64,000 bases of DNA from Candidatus Heimdallarchaeota archaeon (GCA_018238545.1 JABCTC010000011.1:5245-69244); one strand, 5' to 3'. Counted from the first letter of the stretch, positions 74 through 23,802 are shown. Translations and numbers: made by a program. Notes: generated from the letters alone by a model not told the origin.

Positions 74-1281
74 ACAATCACATATTGAAATGTATAACTT
101 GTAAGAAAGAATTTGATCCAAAACCCGGTCTCTATTATTGTGAAGATTGTGGTCAGATTATGGGTACCTTAGAAGTAATCTATGATTACGAGACTATCAA
201 AGAGAAATCAAATATCAAAGATATGAAATTCGATAAAAAAGCTTCCATGTATCAATTTAATTTTCTACTACCAACAGAATCAAAATTGAAGTTTGATGAA
301 TATGTAGGAGGCACTCCATTGTATAAATTTGACCTTCTTGGAATCAAGGATGTTCTTCTAAAATACGATGGCTCCAACCCCTCTAGTTCATACAAAGACA
401 GAGCAAGCTCTATAGCTATTAATAGAGCTCTTGAAGAAGGAAATGATACTGTCTTCTGTGCTTCAACTGGCAATGCGGCAGCATCTCTTGCGATGCTAAA
501 TGCTCAAACTAAAATGGAAACATACATCTTTGTTCCATCAACTATCCCTAATGGGAAGCGAGCTCAACTCGAGATATCGGGGGCAGAGGTTATGGCAGTG
601 GAAGGAACCTATGATGAAGTCTATGATTTGTCTCTGGAATTAGGTTTGAAGAAAGGGTGGTACTGCAGAAGTGCTGCAATTAATCCATATTTATTGGAAG
701 GAAAAAAAACTGGAGCATTTGAAATAATAATTCAAAACGATTTCAATGTACCAGATTATGTTCTTATTGGTGTAGGAGATGGAACAGTAATTAGCTCTCT
801 TTACAAAGGATTTTGGGAATTCAAAGAAATAGGTCTGACAGATAAGATTCCCCGTATTATTGGAGTTCAAGCTGAAGGTATACCAGCGATAAAGAAAGTA
901 TTTGATAAAGGTAAACCCTACATACCTCAAACTATCGAGGGTAATACTGTTGCTGATAGTATCTCTGTTGGTAAACCACGTGATGTCATTAAAGCGTGTA
1001 CCTATATTGAAGCATGCAATGGTTATTTCATCACTCTTACAGACGAAGAAATTTTAGATGCCATAATCGAATTAGGAAAAGAGACTGGGTTATTTGCTGA
1101 ACCAGCTGGAGTAGTTCCTTATGGTGGGCTGAAAAAGCTTATTTATGAAGGAAAAATAACCAAATCAGATACTGTTTGCCTTGTCATAACCGGTAATGGT
1201 CTCAAAGATGTTAATGCAGTTGAAGGTTTGATAAACACAGAATCTTTAACAGTTAAAGATTTAGAAAAAAGGTTTGAATGA
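70..1281 (+). CDS. Threonine-synthase-like PLP-dependent (fold type II) enzyme with N-terminal zinc ribbon
   Basis: The ORF track gives 37-1281. The ATG at 70 (MNNHILKCITCKKEF..YYCEDCG) fits the ATGA overlap with the upstream gene. It has a CxxC..CxxC ribbon, GGTPLY, the PLP-lysine motif SSSYKDRAS, and a Gly-rich loop GVGDGT. Confidence 0.7.
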   Translation: MNNHILKCITCKKEFDPKPGLYYCEDCGQIMGTLEVIYDYETIKEKSNIKDMKFDKKASMYQFNFLLPTESKLKFDEYVGGTPLYKFDLLGIKDVLLKYDGSNPSSSYKDRASSIAINRALEEGNDTVFCASTGNAAASLAMLNAQTKMETYIFVPSTIPNGKRAQLEISGAEVMAVEGTYDEVYDLSLELGLKKGWYCRSAAINPYLLEGKKTGAFEIIIQNDFNVPDYVLIGVGDGTVISSLYKGFWEFKEIGLTDKIPRIIGVQAEGIPAIKKVFDKGKPYIPQTIEGNTVADSISVGKPRDVIKACTYIEACNGYFITLTDEEILDAIIELGKETGLFAEPAGVVPYGGLKKLIYEGKITKSDTVCLVITGNGLKDVNAVEGLINTESLTVKDLEKRFE

Positions 1282-2642
1282 TGAAATTTATTCTTAACCA
1301 AGAAATAATAGAAATAGATGAACCATTAGGTAGCTCTACACTTGATTTCCTAAGAAATAAAGGTGTGAAAGGAGTTAAAGAAGCCTGTCATGAAGGAGAT
1401 TGTGGGGCATGTATGATTCTTGTAGGAAAACTAAAAGATGACGAGTTAGTTTATCGCGCAGTCACATCTTGTATACTTCCGCTTGGAGAAGTTGAAGGCA
1501 AACATGTAGTTACAATTGAGGGGTTAAATCAGAAAGAGTTGAACCCTATCCAGCAAGCTCTTGTCGATACAGGAGGGGTGCAATGTGGGTATTGCACACC
1601 AGGATTTGTTATAAGCCTTACTGGTCATTTTATGAATAGTGAGCTTGAAAATGATAATATTCTTACAGCTATTGAAGGTAATGTTTGCAGATGTACAGGA
1701 CATGCTTCAATTATACGTGCTGCAAATCTTCTATCAGACAAGTATTCATCAGTAAAAGAATCTAAACAACAGTGGACAAAAGCTCTTATTGATGTTAGAA
1801 TTCTTCCTTCATACTTCTCAAATATAGCAGATAGATTGAGAGAGTTGAAAAAAACACCTCAACAAACTAAAGGTAGATTTATCGCTGGAGGGACAGATCT
1901 CCTTGTACAGAATGAATCAATTGAAAATCCTGTATTTTTATCAGAGATGAATCTAGCCAATATTTGGTCGGATGCGAATTATATTTATGTTGGAGCAATG
2001 GCAAACACAGAAAAAATACGCTTATCTACAGATTTGAACAAGGTTCTAGACATAAAGAATCATCTTTTTACAGTATCTTCGCTACCCATCAGAAAACAAG
2101 CAACTATTGGTGGGAACATAGTAAATGCTTCACCTATCGGAGATCTAACGATATACTTTCTTGCACTTGATGCAGATATTAGTATCCTAAATGGTGAAAC
2201 AAGTAGAATAATCAAACTCAAAGATTTTTACAAGGGATACAAAATTTTAGACCTTGAAAAAGGAGAAATACTTGAATGGGTTAGAATCAGAAATGAGGAG
2301 AAACTTTTTTCGTTCGAAAAAGTAGCTAAAAGAGAACATCTTGATATTGCAAGTACCAACAGTGCTCTTTCATTAACTTTAGAAGGAAAAATAATCAAAG
2401 ATATTCATTTATCTGCGGGGGGTGTTGGACCAATTCCAATGCATTTAGATAAAGCCTCATCCTTTCTTGAGAATAAAAAAATAGATGCTTCAATAATAAA
2501 GGAAGCTGCACTAATAGCACTGACAGAGATCAGTCCAATTGATGATGTTAGAGGTTCAGCTAAATACAAGAGTTTACTATTACAACAATTAATCTATGCT
2601 CACTTTCTGAAGCTATTTCCTGAAATGGAGGAATTAATATGA
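1278..2642 (+). CDS. xdhA: Xanthine dehydrogenase-family Fe-S plus FAD subunit (two 2Fe-2S motifs fused to an FAD-binding domain)
   Basis: Motifs: CHEGDCGACMILVG, CGYCTPGFV, NVCRCTGH, then FIAGGTDLLV and the C-terminal DDVRGSAKYK. The ATGA start overlaps the upstream stop at 1278-1281. Confidence 0.8.
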   Translation: MMKFILNQEIIEIDEPLGSSTLDFLRNKGVKGVKEACHEGDCGACMILVGKLKDDELVYRAVTSCILPLGEVEGKHVVTIEGLNQKELNPIQQALVDTGGVQCGYCTPGFVISLTGHFMNSELENDNILTAIEGNVCRCTGHASIIRAANLLSDKYSSVKESKQQWTKALIDVRILPSYFSNIADRLRELKKTPQQTKGRFIAGGTDLLVQNESIENPVFLSEMNLANIWSDANYIYVGAMANTEKIRLSTDLNKVLDIKNHLFTVSSLPIRKQATIGGNIVNASPIGDLTIYFLALDADISILNGETSRIIKLKDFYKGYKILDLEKGEILEWVRIRNEEKLFSFEKVAKREHLDIASTNSALSLTLEGKIIKDIHLSAGGVGPIPMHLDKASSFLENKKIDASIIKEAALIALTEISPIDDVRGSAKYKSLLLQQLIYAHFLKLFPEMEELI

Positions 2643-4882
2643 AAAATGATCTTACACCTCCACATACACGAGGAGAATCAATATTCGTTGATGATATCCC
2701 TGAACCCGAGAACTTACTACACGCTGCTGTTTTTGCATCAAATATTGCTCATGGTAAAATAGCTAATTTGGATATATCAGAAGCTGAGAAATCTGAAGGA
2801 GTTTGCAGAATATTAATAGCGAAAGACATTCCCGGAGAAAATCAGATAGGGGGAGTAATACAAGATGAAGAACTCCTTGCTGATGAAGTGGCAGACTTTA
2901 TTGGACAACCTGTTGCAATAATCCTAGCTGAAACAAAAAAACAGGCAAGAGAAGCTCTTACTAAAATAAAGATAACTTATGAAGAATTACCTGCAATCTT
3001 TGATCCTCGAGAAGCGGCCAAGAAAGGCTCGTTAATTGCCCCTTCGCGAACATTTACCCTTGGCGATGTTGATTCTGTATGGGAAAAATGCGCCACAGTA
3101 GTAGAAGGTCGAGCTGATTCTGGAGGACAAGAGCACATATATTTTGAAACACAAAGTGCATTAGCTATCCCAGGTGAAAGTGGAAGAATAACAATTTATT
3201 CAAGCACTCAATCTCCTACACTTGTTCAAAGAATAACAGCACGTATCCTTGGTTATGATATGAACCTAATTGAAGTGGATGTGAAGAGACTAGGAGGAGC
3301 TTTTGGTGGTAAGGAGGATCAAGCTAATCCATGGGCTGCCTTCTGCGCTCTAGGTGCCTATCATACTGGTCGTCCAGTTAAACTAGTTCTAGGTAGAACT
3401 GAAGACATGCAAATGACTGGCAAGCGTCATCCTTACTCAACTGATTACAAAATAGGGCTCAATGAAGAAGGAAAAATTCTTGCATTTGAAGCTGATTATT
3501 ATCAGAATTCAGGCGCAAGTGCTGACCTCTCTACAGCTATTCTTGGACGAACTATGTTCCATGCAACTAATGTTTACTACGTACCTAATGTGCGAATAAC
3601 AGCTTATCCTTGTAAAACTAACCTCGCACCATTTACAGCTTTCAGGGGTTTTGGAGCGCCTCAGGGGATGTTTGTTATGGAATGCGCATTATCTCATGCT
3701 GCAGATATTACAGATATACCTATTTCAGTTTTACAAAAAAAGAATTTACTCGAAGAAGGGGATCAATTTCCTTACGGTATGCGCATTGAAAGGTCTCAGA
3801 TAAAGAGAAGTTTTGATGAAGTTGTTTTAAATTCTAAATATGAAGAACTGAAGAATAAACAGGAAATATTTAACGAGAAACATCGATTTACTAAAAAAGG
3901 AATAGCTATCATGCCCGTTTGCTTTGGAATATCATTCACAACCACAATGTTAAATCAAGCTGGGGCACTTGTTCACATCTATACTGATGGTAGCGTCAGC
4001 ATAAGCACAGGAGCAATTGAAATGGGACAAGGCGTGAATATGAAAATCAGGACAATTGCTGCTCATGCTTTATCGATCAATATTAATCGAATTCGTATTG
4101 AAAGCACAAATACAACTCGTGTTGCTAATACATCACCAACAGCTGCTAGTAGTGGTTCTGACCTTAATGGTAAAGCAGCAGAAATAGCTTGCACCAAAAT
4201 AATAGAGAGATTAAGAAATTTGGTTTCTGAAAAATTGGGTAGTGGATTGATAACCATTAAAGATGAGATTATCTACTCTGAAGGAAAGAAAGTAGATATT
4301 ACTTGGGAAGAACTCATATGGTTAGCTTATACGAAAAGAATAAATCTCTCTGCTCAAGCACTTTATGCTACACCAAGAATCTATTTCGATAAAAAGAAGG
4401 AGAAGGGAAGACCATTTGGTTACCATGTTTACGGAACAGCTGTTACAGAGGTAACAGTCGATTGTCTTAGAGGAACATATGTTGTAGATAAGGTGCATAT
4501 TGTTCATGATGCTGGCAGAAGTTTAAACTATCTAATTGATATTGGTCAAACAGAGGGAGGATTATTGCAAGGAATCGGTTGGATGACAATTGAAGAGTTA
4601 GTTTATGATAATGGAAAACTTCTTTCTAGTGCTCTTGCAACTTACAAGTTTCCAGACCTTCACTTTACACCAGAAATTGATGTGACTTTTCTTGAAGATG
4701 CTGATAATCCTGAAGCTGTGATGAAATCAAAGGCTATTGGAGAACCACCGTTTATGTATGGAATCGGGACTTACTTTGCACTAAAGAATGCTGCTAGGTC
4801 ATTTCGCAAAGATAAGGAGTGGGAATATTCTTCTCCTCTTACACCAGAAAAACTCTTACTCTATCTTCATGAATTGGAGTAA
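2639..4882 (+). CDS. xdhB: Xanthine dehydrogenase-family molybdopterin-binding large subunit
   Basis: Motifs: GGAFGGKED, TAFRGFGAPQGMF, and KAIGEPPF (catalytic Glu region). Length is 747 aa. ATGA overlap at 2639-2642. Confidence 0.85.
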   Translation: MKNDLTPPHTRGESIFVDDIPEPENLLHAAVFASNIAHGKIANLDISEAEKSEGVCRILIAKDIPGENQIGGVIQDEELLADEVADFIGQPVAIILAETKKQAREALTKIKITYEELPAIFDPREAAKKGSLIAPSRTFTLGDVDSVWEKCATVVEGRADSGGQEHIYFETQSALAIPGESGRITIYSSTQSPTLVQRITARILGYDMNLIEVDVKRLGGAFGGKEDQANPWAAFCALGAYHTGRPVKLVLGRTEDMQMTGKRHPYSTDYKIGLNEEGKILAFEADYYQNSGASADLSTAILGRTMFHATNVYYVPNVRITAYPCKTNLAPFTAFRGFGAPQGMFVMECALSHAADITDIPISVLQKKNLLEEGDQFPYGMRIERSQIKRSFDEVVLNSKYEELKNKQEIFNEKHRFTKKGIAIMPVCFGISFTTTMLNQAGALVHIYTDGSVSISTGAIEMGQGVNMKIRTIAAHALSININRIRIESTNTTRVANTSPTAASSGSDLNGKAAEIACTKIIERLRNLVSEKLGSGLITIKDEIIYSEGKKVDITWEELIWLAYTKRINLSAQALYATPRIYFDKKKEKGRPFGYHVYGTAVTEVTVDCLRGTYVVDKVHIVHDAGRSLNYLIDIGQTEGGLLQGIGWMTIEELVYDNGKLLSSALATYKFPDLHFTPEIDVTFLEDADNPEAVMKSKAIGEPPFMYGIGTYFALKNAARSFRKDKEWEYSSPLTPEKLLLYLHELE

Positions 4883-4903
4883 TAAATCAAAACTAAAGTA
4901 AAG

Positions 4904-5875
4904 ATGTTTGTTATGAATGAAAAACAATTTTGGGAAATGGTTCTAGATACTCTGGAAGAAGGAAATAGTGCAGTACTTGTTGTTATAATCGATAAGAAAG
5001 GATCTGGACCAAACTTACCAGGAGCAAAGATGTTTGCAACATCAAATGAAGTGAGTGGAACTGTAGGAGGAGGAATCTCTGAACTTAATTTACTAAATCA
5101 TGCTAGGAGATTATTGAAAGAAGGAAAGATTGCCACTGAAACTATCCTCCTAGAACACAGTGAAACTGCAGAAGAAAATCGTTCAGGTATGATCTGTTCT
5201 GGTTCGCAGACTTTCGCATTAGTTCCTCTATCAACTTTGGATAAGAGCACTATCAAAGCAATAATAGAAGCTTATGATGAAGTAAAAACAGGCATAATTG
5301 CCTTAAGCGAAAAAGGAATCAGTTTTGATAGAAACAAATCTTTAACGGAAGATAGAGTTTTTTCCACAGAAAACGAAATATGGCTGTATCAAGAAAATAT
5401 TGCACAGCAAGATAAACTCTTTATTATAGGAGGAGGGCACGTATCACTTGCTTTATCTCGGGTCATGAAAACACTGGATTTTCATATTACAGTTTATGAT
5501 GATAGAGAGAATCTACCAACCATGAACAACAACACATTTACTCACAAAAAGCAAATTCTAAGTTATGACGATATTGCTGGAAATATCCCAGAAGGAGATA
5601 ATATCTATGTTATTGTTATGACTTTTAGACATTTTTCAGATGAAAACGTACTTGAAAGGATTATTTCTAAGAAGTGCAGGTATATTGGAATGTTAGCAAG
5701 TATAAAAAAAGCAGAAACAATTTTCTCTAATCTTGATAAAAAGGGTGTTTCAAAAGATCTTCTTGATATAGTTCACTCTCCCATCGGTATAAAAATCCAA
5801 AGCAATACTCCTGAAGAAATTGCCATAAGCATAGCTGCAGAAATTATCCTCACCAAAAATTCTAAGTCCAAATAA
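4904..5875 (+). CDS. xdhC: XdhC/CoxI-family molybdenum cofactor insertion chaperone
   Basis: N-terminal XdhC-like region followed by a Rossmann-like segment LFIIGGGHVSLAL. It lies directly downstream of the xdhAB-like genes. Confidence 0.65.
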   Translation: MFVMNEKQFWEMVLDTLEEGNSAVLVVIIDKKGSGPNLPGAKMFATSNEVSGTVGGGISELNLLNHARRLLKEGKIATETILLEHSETAEENRSGMICSGSQTFALVPLSTLDKSTIKAIIEAYDEVKTGIIALSEKGISFDRNKSLTEDRVFSTENEIWLYQENIAQQDKLFIIGGGHVSLALSRVMKTLDFHITVYDDRENLPTMNNNTFTHKKQILSYDDIAGNIPEGDNIYVIVMTFRHFSDENVLERIISKKCRYIGMLASIKKAETIFSNLDKKGVSKDLLDIVHSPIGIKIQSNTPEEIAISIAAEIILTKNSKSK

Positions 5876-5901: not shown

Positions 5902-6240
5902 CTATACTGAAATTATATCAAAATCATCTTTTACCCAGTTTTCCAATGGAGTGTGACCGAATAAATCGTCATGGACAGGTAATTTTTGTCTTTCAGCCGA
6001 ATCTAAGGCTCCAGTAGCTTTTGCGCACACTTTACAGACAGAGAAAATTAATTTATTCTCCTTCATCTTTTCAAATTTATCATTCCTATTTTCTTCATAA
6101 GTTGGAATTAATTTGCACCCTTCACTTTCAAAGACTACACCTACTTTGTAACCTTTTTCAAAAAAATCTAGCACATTCATCATTACATGAACAAATGTAC
6201 CTTTGTTTGCAGACCATATCACAAATAATAGCTTCTTCAT
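5902..6240 (-). CDS. DsrE/DsrF-like small sulfur-relay-family protein (tentative)
   Basis: 112 aa with an MKKLLFVIWS.. beta-alpha start and conserved Cys residues (EGCKL, CKVCAK). Assigned on overall resemblance only. Confidence 0.4.
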   Translation of the reverse strand: MKKLLFVIWSANKGTFVHVMMNVLDFFEKGYKVGVVFESEGCKLIPTYEENRNDKFEKMKENKLIFSVCKVCAKATGALDSAERQKLPVHDDLFGHTPLENWVKDDFDIISV

Positions 6241-6293: not shown

Positions 6294-9200
6294 TTATATG
6301 AATCGTTTTCTAAGAAGATATTTTTTGTTAACAAGAGTGAAAACTGTATTCAAAATATCATCTAATTCTACATTTTGGAATTCAGTTATTATTGAACTAA
6401 CAGATACTGATTCAGATTTTACTATATAGTTAGTAATTTTCACATTAATATCTTTTAGTTTCTTAATATCCTTCTTCTTTTTATCATTCAATTGCAGTGG
6501 GAAGAATAACCAAATATACAAAGTTTCAGCAATTTTGTCTTGAATTAGATTCTTCTTTTCAACATAAGGATCCATTTTGCCATCCCATACACCCTCTATT
6601 GAGAAGGAATATTCAAACCACATTATTAAATCAAACAATCTAGATGTAAGTTCACTGCTTATCTCCTCAGATGAAAACATGAAAACTGAATACTGTTCAG
6701 CACTAGCAGTATTAACTACAAAATTTCTGTATTCTAGTTTCTTAATCCCACCGGTACCCATTCCTCCAATTTGTTTACCCATTGAAGCTACTACTGAGAG
6801 AAAACCTGTAATCAGCGAAGTATCTACAGTCTTCTTGTACTCAATATCATATTCAAACACTGGAAGGCTTGTCTCATTGTGAATGAATAGAAGTTTCCTA
6901 AGAGACAAGATATTTTCAAACAATGCTACAAGATTCGATCCTTCAGAAACGTCAACTATATCCCCTTTACCTTTCCCTCTTTTATTTCCAACAACAGCAA
7001 CAATTGATATTATCGCGATCAGAACGATTGAAACACCTATGATTACACCTATCAAATAAGGAGGAAATTCAGAAGGAGGAGTAGTAGGGGGGGGAGTAGT
7101 AGGGGGGGGAGTAGTAGGGGGGGCAGTTACTTGATTAATCACAACATCAAATGTTGTTTCAAGTTTCTCGTTGCTATAACTAGATTTGAAATGTGATTTT
7201 GATATATCCAATACTAAATCAAATTCATTGAATCGAATTGCTTGAGAGGAGATAGTAACATAGTTAATCTCATCTTCATAATTAACATAATAATCTTCTT
7301 GAGCCACTATTGCTCCTTGGATTACTATTGACAATTCGCTTTCCGATACCTCCATTGGGTTTCGGTCAGCATCAGTTTCATTGATCAATCTGAAAGATAT
7401 GATCAAATCTTCAGTAGAGTTGCTTTCTATAGAAGTTTCTATAGGTTCTACAGAGAATATATTGAATATTTCAAGATTAAGAATCACATGATGATTTTCT
7501 AATAGGATGCTCGTTGTAGTAAGCTCAATTGTATAAGAACGAGCTGTAATATTATCATCAAAGGTAATACTGTGAAAATCATTATTGGAGGTTAAATTCC
7601 CATTATCTCCCCAACTTGTTTGATATTCGATTGTGGTGTTTTCTATTATTTCTCCATAACTAGTAAAGAAAGGTTCACTTAACTTGTAATAGCTACTATT
7701 AATAAAAAGTTCATCCCCATTCTGTCGAACTATGGTTTGGGTAACGTTACTTACCCAATTACTGTTATCAGGAATTTCCTCCCATTCAACATTGAAGTAA
7801 GTAGAAGCTTGGACATAAATTGGTTGAGAGTAGATACCTATTTCTGTACCGTTGTTCCAATAAACAAATGCTGTCCAGATTCCTTCAGGGTCGCTTCCAT
7901 AAACGGAAGGATCAAGGGTTATCTCAGATGAGTATAACCCTGGACCATCTGGTGTGAAATCTAGAAGAGTATATGGGGACAAATCAGTATAAGTCAAATT
8001 GATTGGAAGACTTGTTTTTAGAGCAATTATCTCTCCATCAGGGTTGAATAAAGTAAAGTTTAGTGTCCCTGAAATGGTATTTTCTATAAGTGTTATTGTT
8101 GAGTAAATGGTAGAACCCTCATAACCTGTAGCATTTATTCCATCTGTAGTCCAATGACCTAAGGAAAACAGATTTGTTGGTTCCTCTTCATTTGATAATT
8201 CCAGTGATTGAATGAAATTAGGACTAGAAGTTTCTAACCTAAAATACCCAGCTGACACATTAGAGTCTAAATAACATAGATAAGTATCACTGGAAAGTAT
8301 AGTTGGAAAGGTATCAGTATCATTATAATAACAAATTGGACTATCGTTCCAATCACTTATTGTTGCTACATGTATCATTCTCTCATAAATTGAGAATGTG
8401 GAAGGATCTACAGATGAAACATCCCAAGTTAAGTTCCAATATATTGAGTAATCTCCAGCTGTTGAGTTAAATGCCGCAAAGTAAGAATCAGCAGTTATTG
8501 AGTTTATGAAACTGTAAGAGTTGTTGAAGGTTATTTCTAAAGAAGTGTCACTTGTTAGATTATGTAGACCTATTGAAGTAATTTGAGAATCTATGTCTAG
8601 GACATCAATGTCATTATCCTTCAATGTAATTCTATTTAAGTCTTTGAATTCCATTGCTGAACCAGTTTGATTTGAAGGTAGTAATTCAACATTTAAAGTA
8701 AAATCAACAGATGGAAGATAATTCCAAGTTAATAGATTGTCCATGTAGTATGAATCACCGAGATATGGGGGCACTGAATTACTATGCCAAAAATAGAATT
8801 TAGGACCTATTGAAGTGATATCTGTAAAAGTTGCAATAACATAATATTTCCCTTGATCTAGAATTATATCTGTAAAATCATAATACAAGAATCCCGAGAT
8901 AATTTGATTAGTAGTATTATAGGGTCCATCAACACTTGATGAGTAAATTTGACTCATATTAGGCTGACCAGAAATTTCATCTGCTTTGACAATAATTAAG
9001 TCAAAATCGTTTATTCCTGTCTGGCTTCCATCTGTACTCAGATGAAGTTCTGCACCATAAAACATAGCATATTCCCAAGGAACATTGAAACTTTGTGCTA
9101 TAGCATGTTTAGTATCGTCTAGATGATCGTCACCATCTTCTTCGAGTTCAATCGGATAAAAATCTTGTTTAGCAAGAACTTGTGTCATATTGTAGTTTAA

Positions 9201-9569
9201 CAAAGAAGAATCGTAAGCTGAAGCGATATCAACATTCGTAAAATTATCTTCAAAATATCCAGTTAAAGAATTATAGGTTAAATTAAGAGAAAAATCGTCA
9301 TAAACAGTTAGTATATCTTCAACATTAACATTATTTCCTGAACCACTTAGATTTGTTACAGGAGTATATGGAAAAGAACTGTAATCTTCGAGTAAATTTG
9401 GCATTTGATCTACTGGATTTATTTGTTCTAGATTATCTTTACCAAGGAAATCATTAGTGTTTGTAGCTGTTAAGCCTTTTAGACTTGTAAGAGTAATGGA
9501 AAATATAAATAAATATGCTAAAATGATAATTGATGAAACTTTTGACCCTTTCGATAAACCCCTAAACAT
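6294..9569 (-). CDS. Large single-pass membrane protein: signal/anchor, ~800-aa sequon-rich ectodomain, PTTPP stalk, TM helix, 230-aa cytosolic module (paralog family member 1)
   Basis: N-terminal hydrophobic segment SSIIILAYLFIFSITL. More than 20 N-x-S/T sequons by eye. Stalk PPTTPPPTTPPPTTPP, then TM LIGVIIGVSIVLIAIISIVAVVG. The C-terminal module aligns with 9757-10449 and 13364-14047. Confidence 0.85.
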   Translation of the reverse strand: MFRGLSKGSKVSSIIILAYLFIFSITLTSLKGLTATNTNDFLGKDNLEQINPVDQMPNLLEDYSSFPYTPVTNLSGSGNNVNVEDILTVYDDFSLNLTYNSLTGYFEDNFTNVDIASAYDSSLLNYNMTQVLAKQDFYPIELEEDGDDHLDDTKHAIAQSFNVPWEYAMFYGAELHLSTDGSQTGINDFDLIIVKADEISGQPNMSQIYSSSVDGPYNTTNQIISGFLYYDFTDIILDQGKYYVIATFTDITSIGPKFYFWHSNSVPPYLGDSYYMDNLLTWNYLPSVDFTLNVELLPSNQTGSAMEFKDLNRITLKDNDIDVLDIDSQITSIGLHNLTSDTSLEITFNNSYSFINSITADSYFAAFNSTAGDYSIYWNLTWDVSSVDPSTFSIYERMIHVATISDWNDSPICYYNDTDTFPTILSSDTYLCYLDSNVSAGYFRLETSSPNFIQSLELSNEEEPTNLFSLGHWTTDGINATGYEGSTIYSTITLIENTISGTLNFTLFNPDGEIIALKTSLPINLTYTDLSPYTLLDFTPDGPGLYSSEITLDPSVYGSDPEGIWTAFVYWNNGTEIGIYSQPIYVQASTYFNVEWEEIPDNSNWVSNVTQTIVRQNGDELFINSSYYKLSEPFFTSYGEIIENTTIEYQTSWGDNGNLTSNNDFHSITFDDNITARSYTIELTTTSILLENHHVILNLEIFNIFSVEPIETSIESNSTEDLIISFRLINETDADRNPMEVSESELSIVIQGAIVAQEDYYVNYEDEINYVTISSQAIRFNEFDLVLDISKSHFKSSYSNEKLETTFDVVINQVTAPPTTPPPTTPPPTTPPSEFPPYLIGVIIGVSIVLIAIISIVAVVGNKRGKGKGDIVDVSEGSNLVALFENILSLRKLLFIHNETSLPVFEYDIEYKKTVDTSLITGFLSVVASMGKQIGGMGTGGIKKLEYRNFVVNTASAEQYSVFMFSSEEISSELTSRLFDLIMWFEYSFSIEGVWDGKMDPYVEKKNLIQDKIAETLYIWLFFPLQLNDKKKKDIKKLKDINVKITNYIVKSESVSVSSIITEFQNVELDDILNTVFTLVNKKYLLRKRFI
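7078..7122. repeat. Three perfect tandem copies of a 15-nt unit (ggagtagtagggggg) containing G7-G8 homopolymer runs; encodes the (PPTTP)x3 stalk on the minus strand
   Basis: Read directly at 7078-7092, 7093-7107 and 7108-7122. Confidence 0.9.
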
Positions 9570-9756
9570 GTTACTACTCCTATGGTTATTCTATGAATCG
9601 CTTATTTAAAGTTCTTACAAAGGCAACTTTCCTTATAAATAAGGTTCATTGTATCTAATTGAAGTACAACTGACTTAACTCTACTCCTTTAATTCTTTAA
9701 ATAGATATCTAAAAGGAGATGAAGTGGTGATTTTTTTCTCAAACTATTAAGCAGGA

Positions 9757-12700
9757 TCAATCAGCATTGTTTGTTATCAGTTTTTCTTCTTTCACCAAAA
9801 TCATTATCCTTTCAAGAATCGCTTCATTAGAGTATTCATCAAGTTGATCCATAATAAGAGCAGTAGTAGCTTTGCCTTTACCATTGATAAAGGAGACAAT
9901 CTCTTGGTCTATGGTTTTTAGTTTACTAAGATCTTCAAGTGTCTTTGATGGTGCTTGTAGTGGAAACATGAACCAAAGGAATAGTTCTTCTACCACTTTT
10001 TCGTTGATACTTGTCTTATATTCGTTGAATATATCCATCGAGCCTTCCCATTTTGCCCCCTCGTACCCGAAAATCACATCAAACCATTTAACAAGATTAT
10101 CTAACCCTTGTTCAAATTCTACTTCTAATTCTGTATCAGAGAAAGAATATATAGTATACGCTCCACTTGAAGCACTTGTTACAACAAAATTATAATATTC
10201 TATTTTCTTAATACCTGTTCTTGCACCACTCATTTCTGCCCCTATTGATGATATTGCTTGAAGTACTCCACTGATTATTGACGGATCTAACTCTGCTCTC
10301 TCATCCAAACTGTATTCATAAATTGGAGAACTAGTTTCATGATGAACTACAAGTATACGTTTTATCATAAATGCAGATTGAAAGATAGCTCGAGCCTTTG
10401 ATTTGTCCGCTTCATGTTCTTCTTTTCTCTTGCTCATTTGTGTTCTAGTAACAAAGAATGCTCCTACACCTAGTCCTGCAACTACAACTAGTGACAGTGC
10501 AATTATCAAACCTATTGGTAGTCCTCCAGTTGGTGTTTTAATACTAATTGTTGCAAGAATAAAACTCAGCACTGTGTCATATCCTTCTTTGGACGCTGTT
10601 ACTCTAACGTTCAGTGTTTTGGTTTCAGGTTCGTTAATTCGAATTATGAGTGTATATATACCATCATTCTCTGAGTTTTCAATTATTTCCACACCAGGTT
10701 TTGCTATATCTAAAGATACTTCTATTGTTGCACCTTTAATTTGTTCAGAATGTGTTTCATCTATCCATTCAAAAGTCAAAGTTATCTGACTGCTAGTATT
10801 TGTCTCTGAAACTGTAATGATTGGTTCGACAGAGGTATCTGCAACAGCTAATATGTCGTAATTGATTGTATTTGATGCTATCGGATCACCTAGCGATTCA
10901 ACAAAATAGATTTTCTGAACAGAGATTTCTACTTCATAATTTGCAGGTAAGTTATCTAATACATCATTATAGATAGTTAACAAGAAGTGATCATCGACCC
11001 CAACACTCATGTATTCAACCATTGGTGTTAATGAAGTTCCATTTATTGCTACATGTATGGAAAGGTTGTTAGTAATTGGAGCACTTCCATTTGTTACATC
11101 TACAACAGAAAATGTAAATTCTGCGTTATCAATGTAATAGTACACCGGATTTACAGATTGAGGTTCAAGGACACGGAACTCATGTAGTAGAATCAAAGAA
11201 AATTGATCTGAATGAGATTGTAAGAATGGTCCTTTTGCATATATATCTATGAGATAGGACCCTTCTGTTATATTTGGTGCTAGACTATAACTATAATTTC
11301 CTGAATCAAATGCAAGATTATCTGTATCTAACCAACTTGTTGTATAGTAAACATCTCCGTTAGGAATGTATGTTCCTAAACCTGTAAAGAATGGATCGCT
11401 GATATTGTAGTAACTAACTTTAATGTTAATCGCTTCACCATTTATTCTAGTAATCTCAGTAGAGGATAATTCTAACCAGTCTCCTCCTACTTCTTCTTCT
11501 ACGAAGAATGAAGCCAATGTTGGTTTGAAAACAGTAATTGTTTGAGTGAAAAGTCCTGCTTCCGTACCGTTTGTCCAATAATAAACCACTGTCCAATATC
11601 CTTCAGCATCTGATGCAGATATAGACGGATCAAATGTAACATTGGCTTTGAAAAGTGAACCTTCTGTATAAGCATCATTAGTATAGGAAGAATTGTCTAG
11701 ATAGATAAGATTAACCGGCAATGAGCTCTTCAGTGGAAGTATATTACCATTACTATCCAATACGGAATAATTTAGTGCCCCCCCGCTCGTTATGAAATTC
11801 TCTATGCTTGCAGTCGACAGTATTGTCGTTCCTTCAAAACCAAATGCGTGTGTCTCATTATTTGTCCAGTATCCTAACTCTTGAAGTGTATCACTTATGG
11901 ACGTCGTTGTGATGTAATTTGGACTTGTAATCGTGAACTCAAAGTTTCCGCTATCATATTGGTTTATGTTAAATAAGATGGATAAATTATACTCAAAAAC
12001 ATTTCCAACCCAACTTCCAGTTATTGGAATCCCCCCATTCAATAAAAATGAGAAAGCTGTTTTATTCCAATCATTTGGAACAGAAAATGCTTGAAATCTA
12101 GTGGTGTTTGTATATGTTCCCAAACTCACAACATCTGTAGTCCAAGAATGAGTCCATGTGTTACTATACTCATTATATGTAGAATTAAGAAGATCAATTA
12201 CCGAAGTAGAAGCGTAAGTTCTACTAAATTGATAACTACTGTTCGATTGAAGAATAACGGCCCTATTTGATGTTAATATATGAAGCCCAGTTCCACTAAT
12301 AATTTGATCGAGTGTTGTAACATTAGCTCCATTATCAGTTAGATCCACTGTTGTTGGATCTGTATATGTCAGGGGATTTCCACCACTATCTGATTCTTGT
12401 ATATGAGAGGCAAATGCAACAGTTCTCCCATTTGGATCAGGACCGACCCAGCTTGTCCCATCATGATAATACGTTATTCCTTGAGAAATTTGTTGGCTTC
12501 TCCAGAATAATCCTGAATCATCATCAACATCAATAGTTGAAAGGTTTGCAACAACGAAATAGGATCCAATACTTAATGTATAGTCTACAAAATCGATGTA
12601 CGCCATGATGTCTATACTACTCACGGGAAGAGGATTAGCTAGACTAAATGTGTTATCAATGGCAGTACTTAGAATTGCACTCATATTGGGTGTTCCGGAC

Positions 12701-13269
12701 ACACTTTTTTCTACAAGAAATATATCTATTTCATCTCCAACATAACCTAATCCGAAAATTTCTAATCCCAATTGGGCTCCATGGAATATAGCATAAGGAG
12801 TAAGTACATCAAACCCAATAGCATAACTTATTCTTGAAGATGTTAATTCATCAACAATTCTATTTCCTCCATCTTGAATGAAATCTACATCAATAGCACT
12901 TTCAAGTGTCAGATTATATTGTAATATGTCATCTGAATAACTTGTGGGAGAGGTAATAGTGTAAGAATTATTATAACCATTAGTTGAATTCAAATCAATG
13001 TTAAGAGAATCGTATACAGCTAAAGTGTCATCAATGACAAGAGAATCTCCTGAATCCGATAAACTATCAATGGGTGTATAATCATATTTAATTCGGTTGG
13101 TCAAATCCGAAGTATTTGGTGAGATGTTATCATCATCGATAATATTTGAAAAAGAATCTATGGAGAAATTGTTGAGATTGTTTTCTATTAGAATTGATGA
13201 CACAAGTGAAAATGTGAAAAGCGCAATAATTGTACATGATAAAATTTTTTTGTTGATATTATGACCCAT
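9757..13269 (-). CDS. Large single-pass membrane protein, paralog of 6294-9569: sequon-rich ectodomain, TM helix, 230-aa cytosolic module (family member 2)
   Basis: N-terminal anchor ILSCTIIALFTFSLVSSIL and TM LPIGLIIALSLVVVAGLGVGAFFV. Several ectodomain blocks are shared with 6294-9569, for example EGYWTVVYYWTNGTEAG versus EGIWTAFVYWNNGTEIG. It has the conserved cytosolic module. Confidence 0.85.
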   Translation of the reverse strand: MGHNINKKILSCTIIALFTFSLVSSILIENNLNNFSIDSFSNIIDDDNISPNTSDLTNRIKYDYTPIDSLSDSGDSLVIDDTLAVYDSLNIDLNSTNGYNNSYTITSPTSYSDDILQYNLTLESAIDVDFIQDGGNRIVDELTSSRISYAIGFDVLTPYAIFHGAQLGLEIFGLGYVGDEIDIFLVEKSVSGTPNMSAILSTAIDNTFSLANPLPVSSIDIMAYIDFVDYTLSIGSYFVVANLSTIDVDDDSGLFWRSQQISQGITYYHDGTSWVGPDPNGRTVAFASHIQESDSGGNPLTYTDPTTVDLTDNGANVTTLDQIISGTGLHILTSNRAVILQSNSSYQFSRTYASTSVIDLLNSTYNEYSNTWTHSWTTDVVSLGTYTNTTRFQAFSVPNDWNKTAFSFLLNGGIPITGSWVGNVFEYNLSILFNINQYDSGNFEFTITSPNYITTTSISDTLQELGYWTNNETHAFGFEGTTILSTASIENFITSGGALNYSVLDSNGNILPLKSSLPVNLIYLDNSSYTNDAYTEGSLFKANVTFDPSISASDAEGYWTVVYYWTNGTEAGLFTQTITVFKPTLASFFVEEEVGGDWLELSSTEITRINGEAINIKVSYYNISDPFFTGLGTYIPNGDVYYTTSWLDTDNLAFDSGNYSYSLAPNITEGSYLIDIYAKGPFLQSHSDQFSLILLHEFRVLEPQSVNPVYYYIDNAEFTFSVVDVTNGSAPITNNLSIHVAINGTSLTPMVEYMSVGVDDHFLLTIYNDVLDNLPANYEVEISVQKIYFVESLGDPIASNTINYDILAVADTSVEPIITVSETNTSSQITLTFEWIDETHSEQIKGATIEVSLDIAKPGVEIIENSENDGIYTLIIRINEPETKTLNVRVTASKEGYDTVLSFILATISIKTPTGGLPIGLIIALSLVVVAGLGVGAFFVTRTQMSKRKEEHEADKSKARAIFQSAFMIKRILVVHHETSSPIYEYSLDERAELDPSIISGVLQAISSIGAEMSGARTGIKKIEYYNFVVTSASSGAYTIYSFSDTELEVEFEQGLDNLVKWFDVIFGYEGAKWEGSMDIFNEYKTSINEKVVEELFLWFMFPLQAPSKTLEDLSKLKTIDQEIVSFINGKGKATTALIMDQLDEYSNEAILERIMILVKEEKLITNNAD

Positions 13270-13363
13270 TATAATCCCAGAAGATTTGTTTTTAGTTTAT
13301 ATGTTAATTTTACTTTAAATCTTTATTGTTTATATTTATTACGTAGGTGTAGATAGTTGATAC

Positions 13364-14047
13364 TTAATCATGAGAGGAAGTAACCAAATAACCTTTATCC
13401 ACTAAACCAAATATCTCATTTAGAATTTCTTCTTCATCAAATTGCTTGAAATAATCTAACAGACGTGCTGATGTACAACTCTTGTTTTTATCTACACACT
13501 CAAAGATAGTCCTGCCAAACACTGACAACTGTTTTGTATCTAATTGTTTGTTCTTGGATGTTTGAAGGGGATAAAGCAACCAGAGATACAGATTCTGTGA
13601 AATTTTGTTTTCGATTATAGCTTTGTTAATTTTAAAAATGTCTAGTGAACCATCCCAATTATCCTTTATTGATCGAAAGGCTGTGCTAAACCATGAAATT
13701 AACTTCTGCATTCCTTTTTCAATCTCTTTTTCTAAATCGGTTTCAGAAAATATATAAATTGTAAAACCATTGAAGTGAGACCCTGATACAACAAAGCCAT
13801 GAAATTCAAGTTTCTTAAAGCCCGTTGGTCTTCCTATCATCTCTTGACCTATAACTGATATAGCTTCAAGAATCCCAGTAATCATAGAAGAATCAAAAGG
13901 AATCGTGTTTTCAACATCTTTTTCGAATACTGGAAGACTTGTTTCATGGTGAACTATCAGAATTTTTTGAATCATGAAGACAGTTTGATAAATGTCTCGT
14001 AGTCTATTATAAGGTAAATTATCCGTACTAACCATTGTTTCGCTCAA
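13364..14047 (-). CDS. Stand-alone copy of the cytosolic module (predicted Roadblock/longin-like alpha/beta domain plus winged-helix-like C-terminus), family member 3
   Basis: 227 aa. Aligns block by block with the C-termini of the two upstream giants: ILIVHHETSLPVFEK, DSSMITGILEAISVIGQEM, GFKKLEFHGFVV, NWDGSLD, LYLWLLYPLQ, ILNEIFGLVDKGYLV. Confidence 0.8.
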   Translation of the reverse strand: MSETMVSTDNLPYNRLRDIYQTVFMIQKILIVHHETSLPVFEKDVENTIPFDSSMITGILEAISVIGQEMIGRPTGFKKLEFHGFVVSGSHFNGFTIYIFSETDLEKEIEKGMQKLISWFSTAFRSIKDNWDGSLDIFKINKAIIENKISQNLYLWLLYPLQTSKNKQLDTKQLSVFGRTIFECVDKNKSCTSARLLDYFKQFDEEEILNEIFGLVDKGYLVTSSHD

Positions 14048-17138: not shown

Positions 17139-18395
17139 TTAGCTTTGATTCAAGATTAACCTAACATTAAGATCAAGTTCTTCACCTTTCTTTGTTAGAC
17201 CTGTAATATATAATGTTTCATGGTTTCGTATTCCTTGTTCTTTCAATGTTGAATCCATTTCTACATCTACTGGGTCTTTTTTATCAATTATCCAAAATGA
17301 AGGTAAAAATTCAGGATCATAACTATATCCTCTGTTTTTTATGATAGTTAGTAAAACATCAACAGTTGCAGTTGCAGGTATTTTTACTTCTTCAATTATT
17401 GTAGCATTCCTACCACAGAGCATGCATTTCTTATTTGGTGGTTTTTCTATATAGAAGAATTTCCCTACTAATCCATTGTAAATAACATATTCAGGATTTA
17501 CAGTACCAAGTTCAATTCCTTTGAGATGGTGCATAAGTTTCAATGCTTCTTGTGATTGTAAAGAGGCTATTACAGCATTAATACTAATTATTGTTGGGTC
17601 GTGTTGGTCAACCATTTTCACAGCTTCATCCAAAGAAAATACCTTTTCAGAGGGGAAATGCTCTTTCACTAAGTTATTTGCATAGTTTATTACAAGATTC
17701 ATTTCTTCCAAAATGGTCGTATCAGGGGGTCTATTGTTCTTTGACTCAAAATATAGTTGTCCTTTCAACAAACAGTGAGATTTTTTTCTTGGTATTCCCA
17801 CTAGTGTACAAGCTGCTAAAGTTTCTCTTTCTCGTTCTTGCTGTGGATCACATTGAAGGCATGCATTTTCATCTGGCAAATAGGTGTAAACATGACCATA
17901 ATATGTTGCAGTTCCTCCATCAATCATTGGTTTCTTAAACTGAACCGCTCTTCGTATTAGCTCGTTTCTTGCTGTAACAGAATCTAAACCAGAAACATAC
18001 ATATCAGCTGTAGCATATACCTCTGGGTCAACATCTTCTAGATTGGAATGGTGCCAAATATATTTACTGTAAGGATTTATTTTCATTAGAGCTCTTGCTG
18101 CAACTTTAGCTTTAGGTTCTCCTTCATCTGCATCTGAGAAAAGTATTTGTCTATTAAGATTGGAATATTCAATAATATCTAAATCGATAAGGTGAATAGT
18201 TCCTACACCGGCCATAGCTAAGTTCTTTGCTATTTCTGTTCCCAATCCCCCAACTCCAACAATTAAAACCGTTGAATCTTTCAAAGCTTTCTGATTCCAT
18301 CCAGGTAATCTAAGTTGTCTATCAAAACGTATTCTCTCATCTTTTGAAAGGGTTTCATCGAAGAAATTAGATTTTTTTATGTTTTTTGCATTCAT
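17139..18395 (-). CDS. E1-like ubiquitin-activating enzyme (ThiF/MoeB/UBA adenylation domain with catalytic-Cys region and C-terminal Ub-fold-like domain)
   Basis: Motifs: GVGGLGTEIAKNLAMAGVG..IDLDIIEYSNLNRQILF, paired CxxC (CLQC, CMLCG), and the Cys segment LAACTLVGIP, which resembles the P-x-C-T motif of UBA enzymes. Confidence 0.85.
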   Translation of the reverse strand: MNAKNIKKSNFFDETLSKDERIRFDRQLRLPGWNQKALKDSTVLIVGVGGLGTEIAKNLAMAGVGTIHLIDLDIIEYSNLNRQILFSDADEGEPKAKVAARALMKINPYSKYIWHHSNLEDVDPEVYATADMYVSGLDSVTARNELIRRAVQFKKPMIDGGTATYYGHVYTYLPDENACLQCDPQQERERETLAACTLVGIPRKKSHCLLKGQLYFESKNNRPPDTTILEEMNLVINYANNLVKEHFPSEKVFSLDEAVKMVDQHDPTIISINAVIASLQSQEALKLMHHLKGIELGTVNPEYVIYNGLVGKFFYIEKPPNKKCMLCGRNATIIEEVKIPATATVDVLLTIIKNRGYSYDPEFLPSFWIIDKKDPVDVEMDSTLKEQGIRNHETLYITGLTKKGEELDLNVRLILNQS

Positions 18396-18526: not shown

Positions 18527-18886
18527 TTATCCTGCTGTTGAAACTGGGATCAGTAGAACTGTATCTCCATCTTCAACTCCATAATTTTCAAGAACATCGT
18601 CATTGTCACATGTTCTTCCAGCATGGGATAGATGGAATTCATCAGGTGGTAATCCAAAAATCTGGCTAACTGTATATTTTATATCACTAATTGGGGCATC
18701 AGTTGCTACAACAAGTTTTTCTTGTTTTGGACTTGGTCCAATGGTGCTTTGGAAATATACACTTATTTTCTTACCTGCTGGTGTTTTAGTCTTAGCAGGA
18801 GTTTTGGATTTTATCTCGGTTTCAATAACCTTTTCTTCTTCTTCTTCTTCTTCGTCAAAAGAAATTTCTTCAAATTCTTCGCTCAT
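18527..18886 (-). CDS. Ubiquitin-like beta-grasp protein with ~40-aa acidic/basic N-terminal extension; C-terminus ..STAG
   Basis: The C-terminal 55 aa align by eye with ubiquitin: ISDIKYTVSQIFGLPPDEFHLSHAGRTCDNDDVLENYGVEDGDTVLLIPVSTAG versus [54 protein letters not shown]. Confidence 0.8.
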   Translation of the reverse strand: MSEEFEEISFDEEEEEEEKVIETEIKSKTPAKTKTPAGKKISVYFQSTIGPSPKQEKLVVATDAPISDIKYTVSQIFGLPPDEFHLSHAGRTCDNDDVLENYGVEDGDTVLLIPVSTAG

Positions 18887-21666: not shown

Positions 21667-22395
21667 TTAAGATTTATCCTCTTTATTTTTCATGAAAGTG
21701 TTTATAGACTCATAACACGCTTCACTACTCATTCCTTGAACTTCAACAGATAGCTGATAATACTTTTGTTTGTCTTGATGAATGCGAAATACACCAATCC
21801 CATAATCCTCTGGTGAGAGCATCAGGGGGTCGATAACAAGTGCTATAGATTTGTTCCAAAATGTTTGATATCTTAGATGTGTTCTGTAGTCATCACCACT
21901 CAAGAATGGAGTGTAACTTGGATGGGAATGAGCCCAACCGATTATGAAATGCTCGTTACCTTTCTTGTGGAAGATTTCTGTAAATATGTTTTGATCAACA
22001 ATTTCTACGCTTACAGCATCTCCTTGATCAACAGGCCAGTAATCCTCAACAATGATTTGCTCTAGCGGTGTTTCTTCATCGCTAATTTTTCCTGTAAGTA
22101 ATCCAATTACTTCTACCCATTTCTTCTTAGGGATAGAATCATTAGCATAAGATAAAGCATGTTTTGCAAGTTTTAGATAAGCTTTGGGCTTCAATACAAT
22201 CTCTGAAATAGGTTTGATTTGAAGTATATCTTCAGTTATGGTTTCTTCGCTAATTTCTTTAGCTTCCTTTTCCTTTTCCTCTACAATTTTATCAACTTTG
22301 TACAATTCTAGAGTTTTTTCAATTGCTTCAATTTTCTCAAGGAGTTTTTTATATTCAGCAGGATAATTGGTTCCATCATCTTCCATAATTTTCAC
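21667..22395 (-). CDS. JAMM/MPN+ metalloprotease (Rpn11/CSN5-like isopeptidase)
   Basis: Complete JAMM motif: E (WVEVIGLLTG) followed by HSHPSYTPFLSGDD, which matches H-x-H-x7-S-x2-D. Confidence 0.85.
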   Translation of the reverse strand: MKIMEDDGTNYPAEYKKLLEKIEAIEKTLELYKVDKIVEEKEKEAKEISEETITEDILQIKPISEIVLKPKAYLKLAKHALSYANDSIPKKKWVEVIGLLTGKISDEETPLEQIIVEDYWPVDQGDAVSVEIVDQNIFTEIFHKKGNEHFIIGWAHSHPSYTPFLSGDDYRTHLRYQTFWNKSIALVIDPLMLSPEDYGIGVFRIHQDKQKYYQLSVEVQGMSSEACYESINTFMKNKEDKS

Positions 22396-22418: not shown

Positions 22419-22952
22419 TTACCAGTATGATTTTGCATACTTTTTACTTATTGTACTCGCTTTTTTGATGAATTTCTTTTTGTTATTTAAAAATTCCAAA
22501 GCCGCTTCTTTGTTAAATACATCTTTGGGATTTACATAAGCTCCTTCGACATTAAACATGGCAAGTATTGAGTGAATGACAGTAGTGATGCTTTTGGATG
22601 GAGACCAACCATCGTGTTTTCCTACTAAATCATTATCTACAAGAGCGAGACAAATATTTCTTTTCTTTGGATATTCTTTTGGATTAGGCCAGAAATTAGG
22701 ATGCCAAATAGGTGTGTGAAGTCTTACAAATGGAGGTTTGTAAGGATAATTTGGTCCAAAGAATATTTCTAATTTATATTTACCTCCAGCATAAGGAGTC
22801 CCCTTAGGAGCTTTGAATCCTATAGCTAGATGATCCATTGACTTCTTAGCTTTGGGGAATGATTTTACTTGCGCAACTATGCCTTCTTTATGTAATTTCC
22901 TCAAGGCTTCGTAATCTTTTATGACTCTTTGTTTTCTAATTTTTATCACCAT
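22419..22952 (-). CDS. E2 ubiquitin-conjugating enzyme (UBC fold)
   Basis: YPYKPPFVRLHTPIWHPNF contains the HPN motif, followed by the catalytic Cys in RNICLALV. Confidence 0.85.
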   Translation of the reverse strand: MVIKIRKQRVIKDYEALRKLHKEGIVAQVKSFPKAKKSMDHLAIGFKAPKGTPYAGGKYKLEIFFGPNYPYKPPFVRLHTPIWHPNFWPNPKEYPKKRNICLALVDNDLVGKHDGWSPSKSITTVIHSILAMFNVEGAYVNPKDVFNKEAALEFLNNKKKFIKKASTISKKYAKSYW

Positions 22953-23109: not shown

Positions 23110-23802
23110 ATGAGCGTATTTCATATTGTAGGAAATGAATTGATTCCAATCACGGAGCCTTATCAGTTTCTTAATGGTGATGTCTATATTATTGAAACAA
23201 AAAACAATCTGTGGATATGGTTAGGTTCTAAATCTTTTGCTGATGAAAAATTTATTGGTTCTTGGGGAGCAAAGAAAATCGAAAGTCAAAATAAGGAGCT
23301 GAAAATTGAAACCATCAATCAAGGTTTCGAGCCTGCAGAGTTTAAGGAACAGATTGCCTTTGAAATTGTTGAAGGAGATACCTTAGGTTTTCTCAAATCA
23401 ATTGACACAAAATATGAGAAAGATTTCAGATTGCTTCAGATTAAGGAGGATGATGAAGGAGCAGTGATAGTTTCAGAACTACCTATTGAACACAAACACT
23501 TTCAATCCGATGATGCTTTTGTTCTAGATGCTTACAGCGTTCTTTATGTCTGGATTGGTAAAGATAGTCAGGTTAAAGAGAAATATGAAGCTGGAAGAAT
23601 CACTAGACTGTTAGAAGTAGAGAGAAAAAGATTTCCAATTATTTATGTAATCGAAGAAGAGAACGAACCTGATGGTTTTCGTGAGCTTCTCTACAAATTG
23701 GGATTAAGGGATGGAATTATGGAATTAAGAAGGACAGTGAAAAGAGTAGACGAGAAAAAAGGTTCTACATCCAAAAAATGGTGGCAGTTCTGGAAAAGAT
23801 GA
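23110..23802 (+). CDS. Two-domain gelsolin/villin-like actin-regulator homolog with basic Trp-rich tail
   Basis: Two gelsolin-repeat cores, GDVYIIETKNNLWIWLGSKS and DDAFVLDAYSVLYVWIGKDS. The tail ends KKWWQFWKR. Confidence 0.7.
   Translation: MSVFHIVGNELIPITEPYQFLNGDVYIIETKNNLWIWLGSKSFADEKFIGSWGAKKIESQNKELKIETINQGFEPAEFKEQIAFEIVEGDTLGFLKSIDTKYEKDFRLLQIKEDDEGAVIVSELPIEHKHFQSDDAFVLDAYSVLYVWIGKDSQVKEKYEAGRITRLLEVERKRFPIIYVIEEENEPDGFRELLYKLGLRDGIMELRRTVKRVDEKKGSTSKKWWQFWKR

Follow-up and report, generated by a model that had tools for sequence, protein, structure and literature searches.

In Asgard archaea, a cytoplasmic module of about 225 aa is found directly behind the transmembrane (TM) helix of many large surface proteins; at fold level it is predicted to combine a Roadblock/LC7-type (RB) domain with a helical linker and a C-terminal winged helix (wH). 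The module was recognized in a stretch of 64,000 nucleotides from Candidatus Heimdallarchaeota archaeon (GCA_018238545.1 JABCTC010000011.1:5245-69244; this whole stretch is referred to as the window), in which three successive minus-strand open reading frames (ORFs), encoding two giant membrane glycoproteins and one soluble protein, have it in common. Of the 'eukaryotic signature' families of Asgard archaea, Roadblock and longin domains as well as small GTPases belong to those with the greatest expansion. Their cellular connections are largely obscure, partly because the GTPases rarely adjoin genes of their regulators. The expansion of the Roadblock/LC7 superfamily in Asgard archaea has been discussed (PMC12962969), and Liu et al. 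delineated 130 Asgard gene clusters of this superfamily, including many lineage-specific fusions (10.1101/2020.10.19.343400).

The three ORFs extend over 6294-9569 (1091 aa), 9757-13269 (1170 aa) and 13364-14047 (227 aa, TTG start) and are referred to as giant B, giant A and solo, respectively. Their main features are as follows:

9757..13269, minus strand: giant A, predicted type I membrane glycoprotein (signal/anchor, ectodomain of ~890 aa, TM helix, Roadblock-wH tail), 1170 aa
10522..13182, minus strand: ectodomain of giant A with 26 N-glycosylation sequons
10450..10521, minus strand: TM helix of giant A, residues 917-940, hydropathy peak 2.65, followed by TRTQMSKRK
9760..10449, minus strand: cytoplasmic Roadblock-wH tail of giant A, residues 941-1170; gap-free alignment to solo, E 3e-52; hmmsearch score 297
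about 10072-10404 and about 9760-9930, minus strand: Roadblock and winged-helix subdomains, respectively, of the giant A tail
6294..9569, minus strand: giant B, paralogous, predicted type I membrane glycoprotein (TP-rich stalk, TM helix, Roadblock-wH tail), 1091 aa
6987..7058, minus strand: TM helix of giant B, residues 838-861, hydropathy peak 3.27, followed by NKRGKGKG
6297..6986, minus strand: cytoplasmic Roadblock-wH tail of giant B, residues 862-1091; alignment to solo, E 3e-36; hmmsearch score 262
13364..14047, minus strand: solo, predicted soluble Roadblock and winged-helix protein; ORF; homologues of 223 aa; AF2 pLDDT 89.9

In BLASTP comparisons, solo aligns without gaps to the C-terminus of giant A (38% identity over 214 aa, E 3e-52) and likewise matches the C-terminus of giant B (35% identity over 209 aa, E 3e-36). 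The three-way alignment of the modules contains 48 invariant columns. Chance or compositional similarity of the modules was ruled out by the pairwise E-values of 3e-36 to 3e-52. Paralogy of the two giants extends over the entire proteins, the ectodomains sharing 32% identity over 731 aa (E 3e-81). An initial annotation of this locus, made from the DNA alone, had described three consecutive minus-strand genes ending in one module, and the ORFs and pairwise alignments bear this out; every conserved block quoted there was recovered in the three-way alignment, and exactly 230 residues follow the TM helix in each giant, as had been stated. The length of 227 aa given for the stand-alone protein holds for the ORF starting with TTG. 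The gene, however, probably begins with the ATG at 14035 (13364-14035, 223 aa), since the close homologues comprise 223 aa and start at this ATG, located four codons downstream of the TTG; P0001, 95% identical to solo, and most orthologues start there.

In both giants, a hydrophobic signal/anchor is located at the N-terminus and a single strong TM helix further on, the module beginning ~10 residues past the latter, while hydropathy analysis revealed no hydrophobic segment or TM helix in solo. An orientation of the giants with the large N-terminal part outside and the module inside the cell is supported by three features: the distribution of N-x-S/T sequons (26 and 25 in the ectodomains of giants A and B, respectively, i.e., ~1.7x the compositional expectation, as compared with 0 and 1 in their tails), basic residues directly after the TM helix in both proteins, and a TP-rich stalk before the TM helix of giant B. 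Topology and alignments are thus in accord with the annotated layout of ectodomain, one TM helix and conserved cytosolic domain, accompanied by a free copy of the latter encoded next door. The ectodomain of giant A yielded no Pfam, NCBIfam or PDB match. In close relatives it is much less conserved than the tail (48% vs 91% identity in locus L001, 59% vs 85% in L003 and 58% vs 86% in L025), whereas giant B is more even (86% for the ectodomain vs 91% for the tail in L001). This pattern in giant A fits an exposed, fast-changing outside combined with a constrained inside and suggests that this one ectodomain has rapidly diversified or been replaced. The giant B ectodomain is 75-86% identical in the same relatives in which that of giant A reaches only 48-59%.

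The fold of the module was approached by structure prediction for solo with AF2 (AlphaFold2). A first run with close homologues only yielded a predicted local distance difference test (pLDDT) score of 65.5, and its Foldseek matches were weak and all longins. For a second run, distant members retrieved by an exhaustive profile search were added (alignment A3); the resulting model reached a pLDDT of 89.9 and a predicted template modelling score (pTM) of 0.86, and Roadblock proteins now represented the top Foldseek matches. In the model, a Roadblock/LC7 domain of alpha-beta-beta-alpha-beta-beta-beta-alpha topology is followed by a helical linker and, at the C-terminus, a winged helix (a, alpha-helix; b, beta-strand):

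13679..14011, minus strand: Roadblock/LC7-type domain of solo, residues 13-123, according to the AF2 model and Foldseek; elements a1 13-25, b1 26-33, b2 38-44, a2 53-71, b3-b5 78-101 (78-82, 85-92, 95-101) and a3 107-123
13538..13678, minus strand: helical linker of solo, residues 124-170 (helix 136-158), with conserved W131, G133, F138, I145 and P160
13367..13537, minus strand: winged-helix domain of solo, residues 171-227; H176-188, H193-199, H205-217, E221-223; pLDDT ~95

Against the PDB, the model produced 85 Foldseek matches at E<1e-3. Roadblock/LC7 proteins make up roughly three quarters of the top 50 (LAMTOR2/3, MglB, Rag C-terminal domains, Roadblock2/3 of the Asgard archaeon MK-D1, Streptomyces LC7 and dynein LC7), the remainder being longins (AP sigma/mu, zeta-COP, Fuzzy and VAMP7); at most the Roadblock part is matched by these 50 solved structures (aligned columns <=142 of 227). 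A good match was obtained to the Streptomyces Roadblock/LC7 structure 3kye (3.0 A over 108 columns). The order of elements, a-bb-a-bbb-a, is the same as in MglB, LAMTOR2/LAMTOR3, the C-terminal domain of Rag/Gtr, DYNLRB and MK-D1 Roadblock2/3 (PDB 9jq8, 9jue). Profilin as an alternative identity was ruled out by the long central helix and the absence of profilins from the top 50 matches.

The module shares its superfamily with longins (AP sigma/mu, zeta-COP, Fuzzy/Inturned, Mon1/Ccz1, VAMP7), which are its structural neighbours; NPRL2-like longins have been reported to be abundant in Asgard archaea. The two types differ in that RB proteins are defined by N- plus C-terminal helices, while longins are devoid of the N-terminal one but possess a second C-terminal helix (Tran et al., PMC10933270). 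In the solo model, N- and C-terminal helices flank a five-stranded sheet with a long central helix, and the N-terminal helix 13-25, located ahead of b1, is confidently predicted (block pLDDT 91-96); the arrangement characteristic of longins, i.e., bb-a-bbb-a-a without N-terminal helix, was not observed. Because the model has both the N- and the C-terminal helix, the first half of the module is, as modelled and at the level of the fold, a member of the Roadblock/LC7 superfamily of the RB type. The most conserved stretch of the whole family coincides with helix a2 and reads D-x-x-L-I-S-G-F-L-x-A-I-S-S-x-G-x-E, with family-wide conservation of 92% for G58, 97% for A62, 82% for G67 and 84% for E69.

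The second half of the module raises the question of DNA binding. Its C-terminal ~55 residues weakly match winged helix-turn-helix (wHTH) proteins of the Lrp/AsnC type and Csa3 in profile searches (E 0.1-0.7), and some Thorarchaeota members of the family are annotated as Lrp/AsnC regulators, one of them carrying Pfam PF22451. These matches could speak for a membrane-tethered transcription factor, whose winged helix would bind DNA at the membrane or after proteolytic release and of which solo would represent the soluble regulator form. This explanation is nevertheless considered very improbable. The wHTH matches are non-significant, the putative recognition helix is acidic (net charge -5 in solo, mean -2.8 in the close family), as is the whole winged helix (mean net charge -4.4), and no protease gene is present within the cluster; moreover, the pTM of 0.86 suggests that the winged helix is rigidly packed onto the Roadblock-linker unit. 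Since its recognition helix is acidic, the winged helix is read as a putative module for protein-protein contacts, not for DNA binding. In the diverse alignment A3, the recognition helix is near neutral (mean -1.1, range -5 to +5). Identification of the module would correct the 'Lrp/AsnC regulator' annotations.

Roadblock domains form homo- or heterodimers via a2 and the adjacent edge strand, and in known RB proteins a2 constitutes the dimer and platform surface. Such a dimer serves as platform for a small GTPase, as in MglB-MglA and Ragulator-Rag, or for a partner helix, as with dynein IC and LAMTOR1 (PMC10933270, PMC3747258). By analogy, helix a2 and the edge strand would mediate pairing of the modules, between tails and/or between a tail and solo, to yield a membrane-fixed platform ~10 residues away from the membrane. 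This platform would dock a cytoplasmic partner, most plausibly one of the many small GTPases of the organism or an alpha-helix of another protein, with the acidic winged helix acting as a protein-protein adaptor that offers an extra interaction surface. The state or clustering of the fast-evolving ectodomains could thereby be coupled to an intracellular switch. A hetero-oligomer of this kind predicts that several paralogs are kept together, as is seen in the gene cluster. The proposal of tails and solo pairing into a GTPase- or helix-binding platform that links the ectodomains to such a switch is judged about as likely to be right as wrong. The initial annotation had inferred a receptor-plus-adaptor or surface-to-cytoskeleton system from the gene layout; outside-in coupling of the receptor-plus-adaptor type becomes more plausible with the Roadblock fold, since Roadblock domains serve as dimeric platforms for small GTPases or partner helices, while coupling to the cytoskeleton received no direct support.

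Several results weigh against this proposal. At the level of sequence, tests of Roadblock membership fail: Pfam (E<=1) and NCBIfam scans of the three window proteins yielded no meaningful family and no match to PF03259 (Robl_LC7); Pfam at E<=5 returned for 39 diverse modules only one weak match to MAPKK1_Int (LAMTOR3; E 0.0058); PDB sequence searches with profiles A2 and A3 gave only sub-threshold matches to wHTH, Smaug and eS1; and hhalign comparisons with sequences of DYNLRB1, LAMTOR2 and LAMTOR3 were without significance, an in-register alignment over 82 columns with DYNLRB1 being likewise non-significant and of value as a lead only. The Pfam models for longin, NPR2 and folliculin matched neither the window proteins nor diverse members. 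At the level of structure, Foldseek template modelling scores to Roadblock targets are only moderate (0.5-0.67) and many root-mean-square deviations are high. Finally, no GTPase gene was detected in or beside the cluster in the window, in 25 related loci or in one from Thorarchaeota. This last point is weak evidence, because GTPase and RB genes of the cultured Asgard archaeon MK-D1 as a rule do not share operons (PMC10933270) and small GTPases of eukaryote-like type are encoded in the present genome, among them a Ras-family GTPase in the window itself. Overall, the profile searches proposed in the initial annotation revealed no significant family, and its view that the module cannot be assigned to a named family stands with respect to curated sequence families; it does not stand at fold level, where the structure prediction and Foldseek comparison likewise proposed there disclosed Roadblock/LC7 plus winged helix.

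The exhaustive profile search retrieved 374 representative clusters at E<=1e-3. In 92 of the 148 best representatives, a TM helix is located directly upstream of the module, usually ending ~10 residues ahead of it; 26 represent solos or fragments, and 30 are without TM helix, most of the latter matching the Roadblock part only. Among full modules with an N-terminal extension, TM anchoring is nearly universal (70 of 74), and the region preceding the module ranges from 82 to 2596 aa (median 594). All named members looked up belong to Asgard archaea (Heimdall, Hodarchaeales, Odin, Hel, Promethearchaeota (Loki), Thor and 'Asgardarchaeia'). Most ectodomains of the family are without Pfam match, and some contain Big_1/MG immunoglobulin (Ig)-like domains. 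As judged from these matches, the module is an unnamed cytoplasmic tail common among unrelated surface proteins of Asgard archaea. The Roadblock part without TM helix also occurs in soluble fusions with a HerA/FtsK-type ATPase, leucine-rich repeats, an N-terminal helix-turn-helix (HTH) domain or a trailing PCI-type winged helix (P0096, P0086, P0090, P0133 and P0100, from metagenome-assembled genomes (MAGs) of Hod and Hel archaea). A further ectodomain layout was encountered in P0087 (1136 aa, Odinarchaeia MAG), where FG-GAP-like repeats with DxDxDG-type motifs and an MG4 Ig-like domain precede the TM helix and the Roadblock-wH tail; this ectodomain resembles integrin alpha in its layout.

Relatives of the locus were found at 23 loci of a species-representative genome collection (titled as 20 Heimdallarchaeota MAGs, two 'uncultured archaeon' and one 'Promethearchaeati archaeon'), and gene order was established by profile searches of the locus ORFs and all-against-all clustering. 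The conserved same-strand order comprises one to two solos, a ~1180-aa giant, a ~1080-aa giant, in some cases a third one of ~1200 aa, and a 112-113-aa protein; orthologues of giant A in Heimdall MAGs measure 1170-1197 aa. Conservation of this layout extends to relatives in which the identity of solo falls to only 43%. In a neighbour-joining tree, the modules resolve into orthologous groups for solo-1, solo-2 and the tails of giants A, B and C, with solo-1 nearest to the giant A tails; solo-2 is absent from the lineage of the window. The survey of related genomes advocated in the initial annotation thus revealed conservation of the three-gene layout across Heimdallarchaeota MAGs. Two observations had been named there as jointly speaking against the proposed system, namely a layout not conserved in relatives and a module common to unrelated surface proteins; the layout proved to be conserved, but the module is indeed such a common tail.

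One tail type on hundreds of different ectodomains and several paralogs kept together would also be expected of a structural sub-membrane scaffold, in which tails and solos oligomerise only to cluster, space or anchor the giants of a surface coat or adhesin layer, with neither switch nor signalling partner. The giant, sequon-rich and lineage-specific ectodomains, which are reminiscent of archaeal envelope proteins, and the absence from the cluster of genes for GTPases or other signalling proteins agree with this explanation, which is nonetheless regarded as unlikely. A two-domain module of 225 aa with a highly conserved, supposedly exposed helix exceeds what clustering would need, studied Roadblock domains bind a further partner (PMC10933270), and the soluble fusions of the Roadblock part (HerA-type ATPase, leucine-rich repeats, HTH, PCI) point to a general interaction or regulatory role. 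Even if purely structural, the tails would still represent a widespread unnamed cytoplasmic domain of Asgard surface proteins.

The proposed docking platform differs from known Roadblock/LC7 proteins in several respects. While sharing their order of elements, the Roadblock part of the module lacks a significant match to the sequence model (PF03259), is firmly joined to linker and winged helix, and mostly resides ~10 residues behind the TM helix of a large extracellular protein. With the lysosomal Ragulator-Rag complex (LAMTOR1-5 plus RagA/C) it would share the concept of membrane-fixed, stacked Roadblock dimers that dock GTPases. Ragulator, however, is anchored by lipidated LAMTOR1 rather than a TM helix and has no ectodomain, and its GTPases carry Roadblock domains of their own; neither a LAMTOR1-like nor a Rag-like gene was found among the cluster genes or conserved neighbours, so that the locus is not a Ragulator-Rag system. 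The actinobacterial conservon (CvnA-D; MfpB-E) combines a membrane sensor, an MglB-type Roadblock GTPase-activating protein and an HTH-type DUF742 guanine nucleotide exchange factor acting on a Ras-like GTPase (PMC13343842, PMC11343762). Three of these four roles would have a counterpart here, the membrane-spanning protein with its extracellular part, the Roadblock domain and the HTH-type domain being fused in one chain. A histidine-kinase domain, a DUF742 match and an operon GTPase were not detected, and the likeness to the conservon is one of analogy, not membership, considering the archaeal lineage and the fusion of parts. In function, the locus would resemble a TM-anchored Ragulator or a conservon fused into one chain.

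In the searchable literature, no earlier description of a TM-anchored Roadblock plus winged-helix tail of surface proteins or of this Heimdall cluster was found, though one of the 130 clusters of Liu et al. could still cover the module. The fold is familiar; new are its fixed position behind large variable ectodomains, the pan-Asgard spread and the conserved cluster of hetero-paralogs. A Roadblock platform fixed at the inner face of the membrane behind variable ectodomains would have a defined location and a plausible input, and the tails and solo provide concrete baits for cytoplasmic partners in cultured Asgard strains, by which the question of what Asgard Roadblock platforms connect to becomes directly testable. 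It also suggests a possible route for coupling surface events to GTPase switches before eukaryotes. A more far-reaching interpretation is offered tentatively and with considerable doubt: the family might constitute an unnamed Asgard class of receptor-like type I proteins, whose diverse ectodomains (including integrin-alpha-like FG-GAP plus Ig-like ones) are hard-wired by the juxtamembrane Roadblock-winged-helix module to small-GTPase switches, with the Heimdall four-gene cluster as a hetero-oligomeric example having its own soluble subunit. The class would then be a prokaryotic precursor of receptor-to-small-GTPase signalling, akin to a TM-anchored Ragulator.

Directly downstream of the giants, a further gene accompanies the cluster:

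5902..6240, minus strand: 112-aa protein, on the same strand as the giants, kept in L004, L008, L014, L015, L016, L020 and L025

Its product, a possible fourth cluster member, retains 70-92% identity between loci, also where the more distant flanks are different; the Pfam match to DsrE/DsrF-like proteins (E 0.0093) is below cut-off.

Some 3-9 kb away from the cluster, the window encodes a eukaryote-like ubiquitin set consisting of an E1/ThiF protein (17139-18395, minus strand), a ubiquitin-like protein (18527-18886, minus strand), a JAB/MPN protein (21667-22395, minus strand) and an E2 of the UQ_con type (22419-22952, minus strand), followed by a gelsolin-repeat protein (23110-23802, plus strand). 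In L005, L006 and L009, several genes of this region keep synteny with the Roadblock cluster. The partial synteny bears on the idea of a sorting or trafficking handle, according to which the tail would be read by targeting, turnover or vesicle/protrusion-sorting machinery of the ubiquitin/ESCRT or adaptor type, with solo acting as competitor or adaptor. A module serving as common tail of very diverse surface proteins across Asgard phyla would suit this role, the Foldseek matches include longin subunits of the AP and COPI adaptor complexes, and winged helices mediate protein contacts in ESCRT-II. The ubiquitin-gene synteny is loose, however, with other genes and both strands intervening, the topology of the fold is that of Roadblock rather than adaptor longin proteins, and an adaptor or ESCRT gene is absent from the cluster; a sorting handle is therefore held to be rather improbable.

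The Ras/Rab-like small GTPase of the window is encoded at 43770-44324 (minus strand; Pfam Ras, E 2.5e-48), 30 kb from the cluster, and represents an unlinked candidate partner of the proposed docking platform. On its other side, the cluster is flanked by genes for a xanthine-dehydrogenase-type molybdoenzyme set (FAD/2Fe-2S subunit, MoCo subunit and XdhC; 1278-5875, plus strand), which are syntenic in L011, L020 and L025. The window further harbours an Eco57I/TaqI-type restriction-modification methylase (37381-39213, minus strand) and two intein-containing genes, both with splicing and LAGLIDADG domains, one (39496-41583, minus strand) for the TPP-binding subunit of a pyruvate/2-oxoacid:ferredoxin oxidoreductase operon and the other (54658-58110, plus strand) for MCM.

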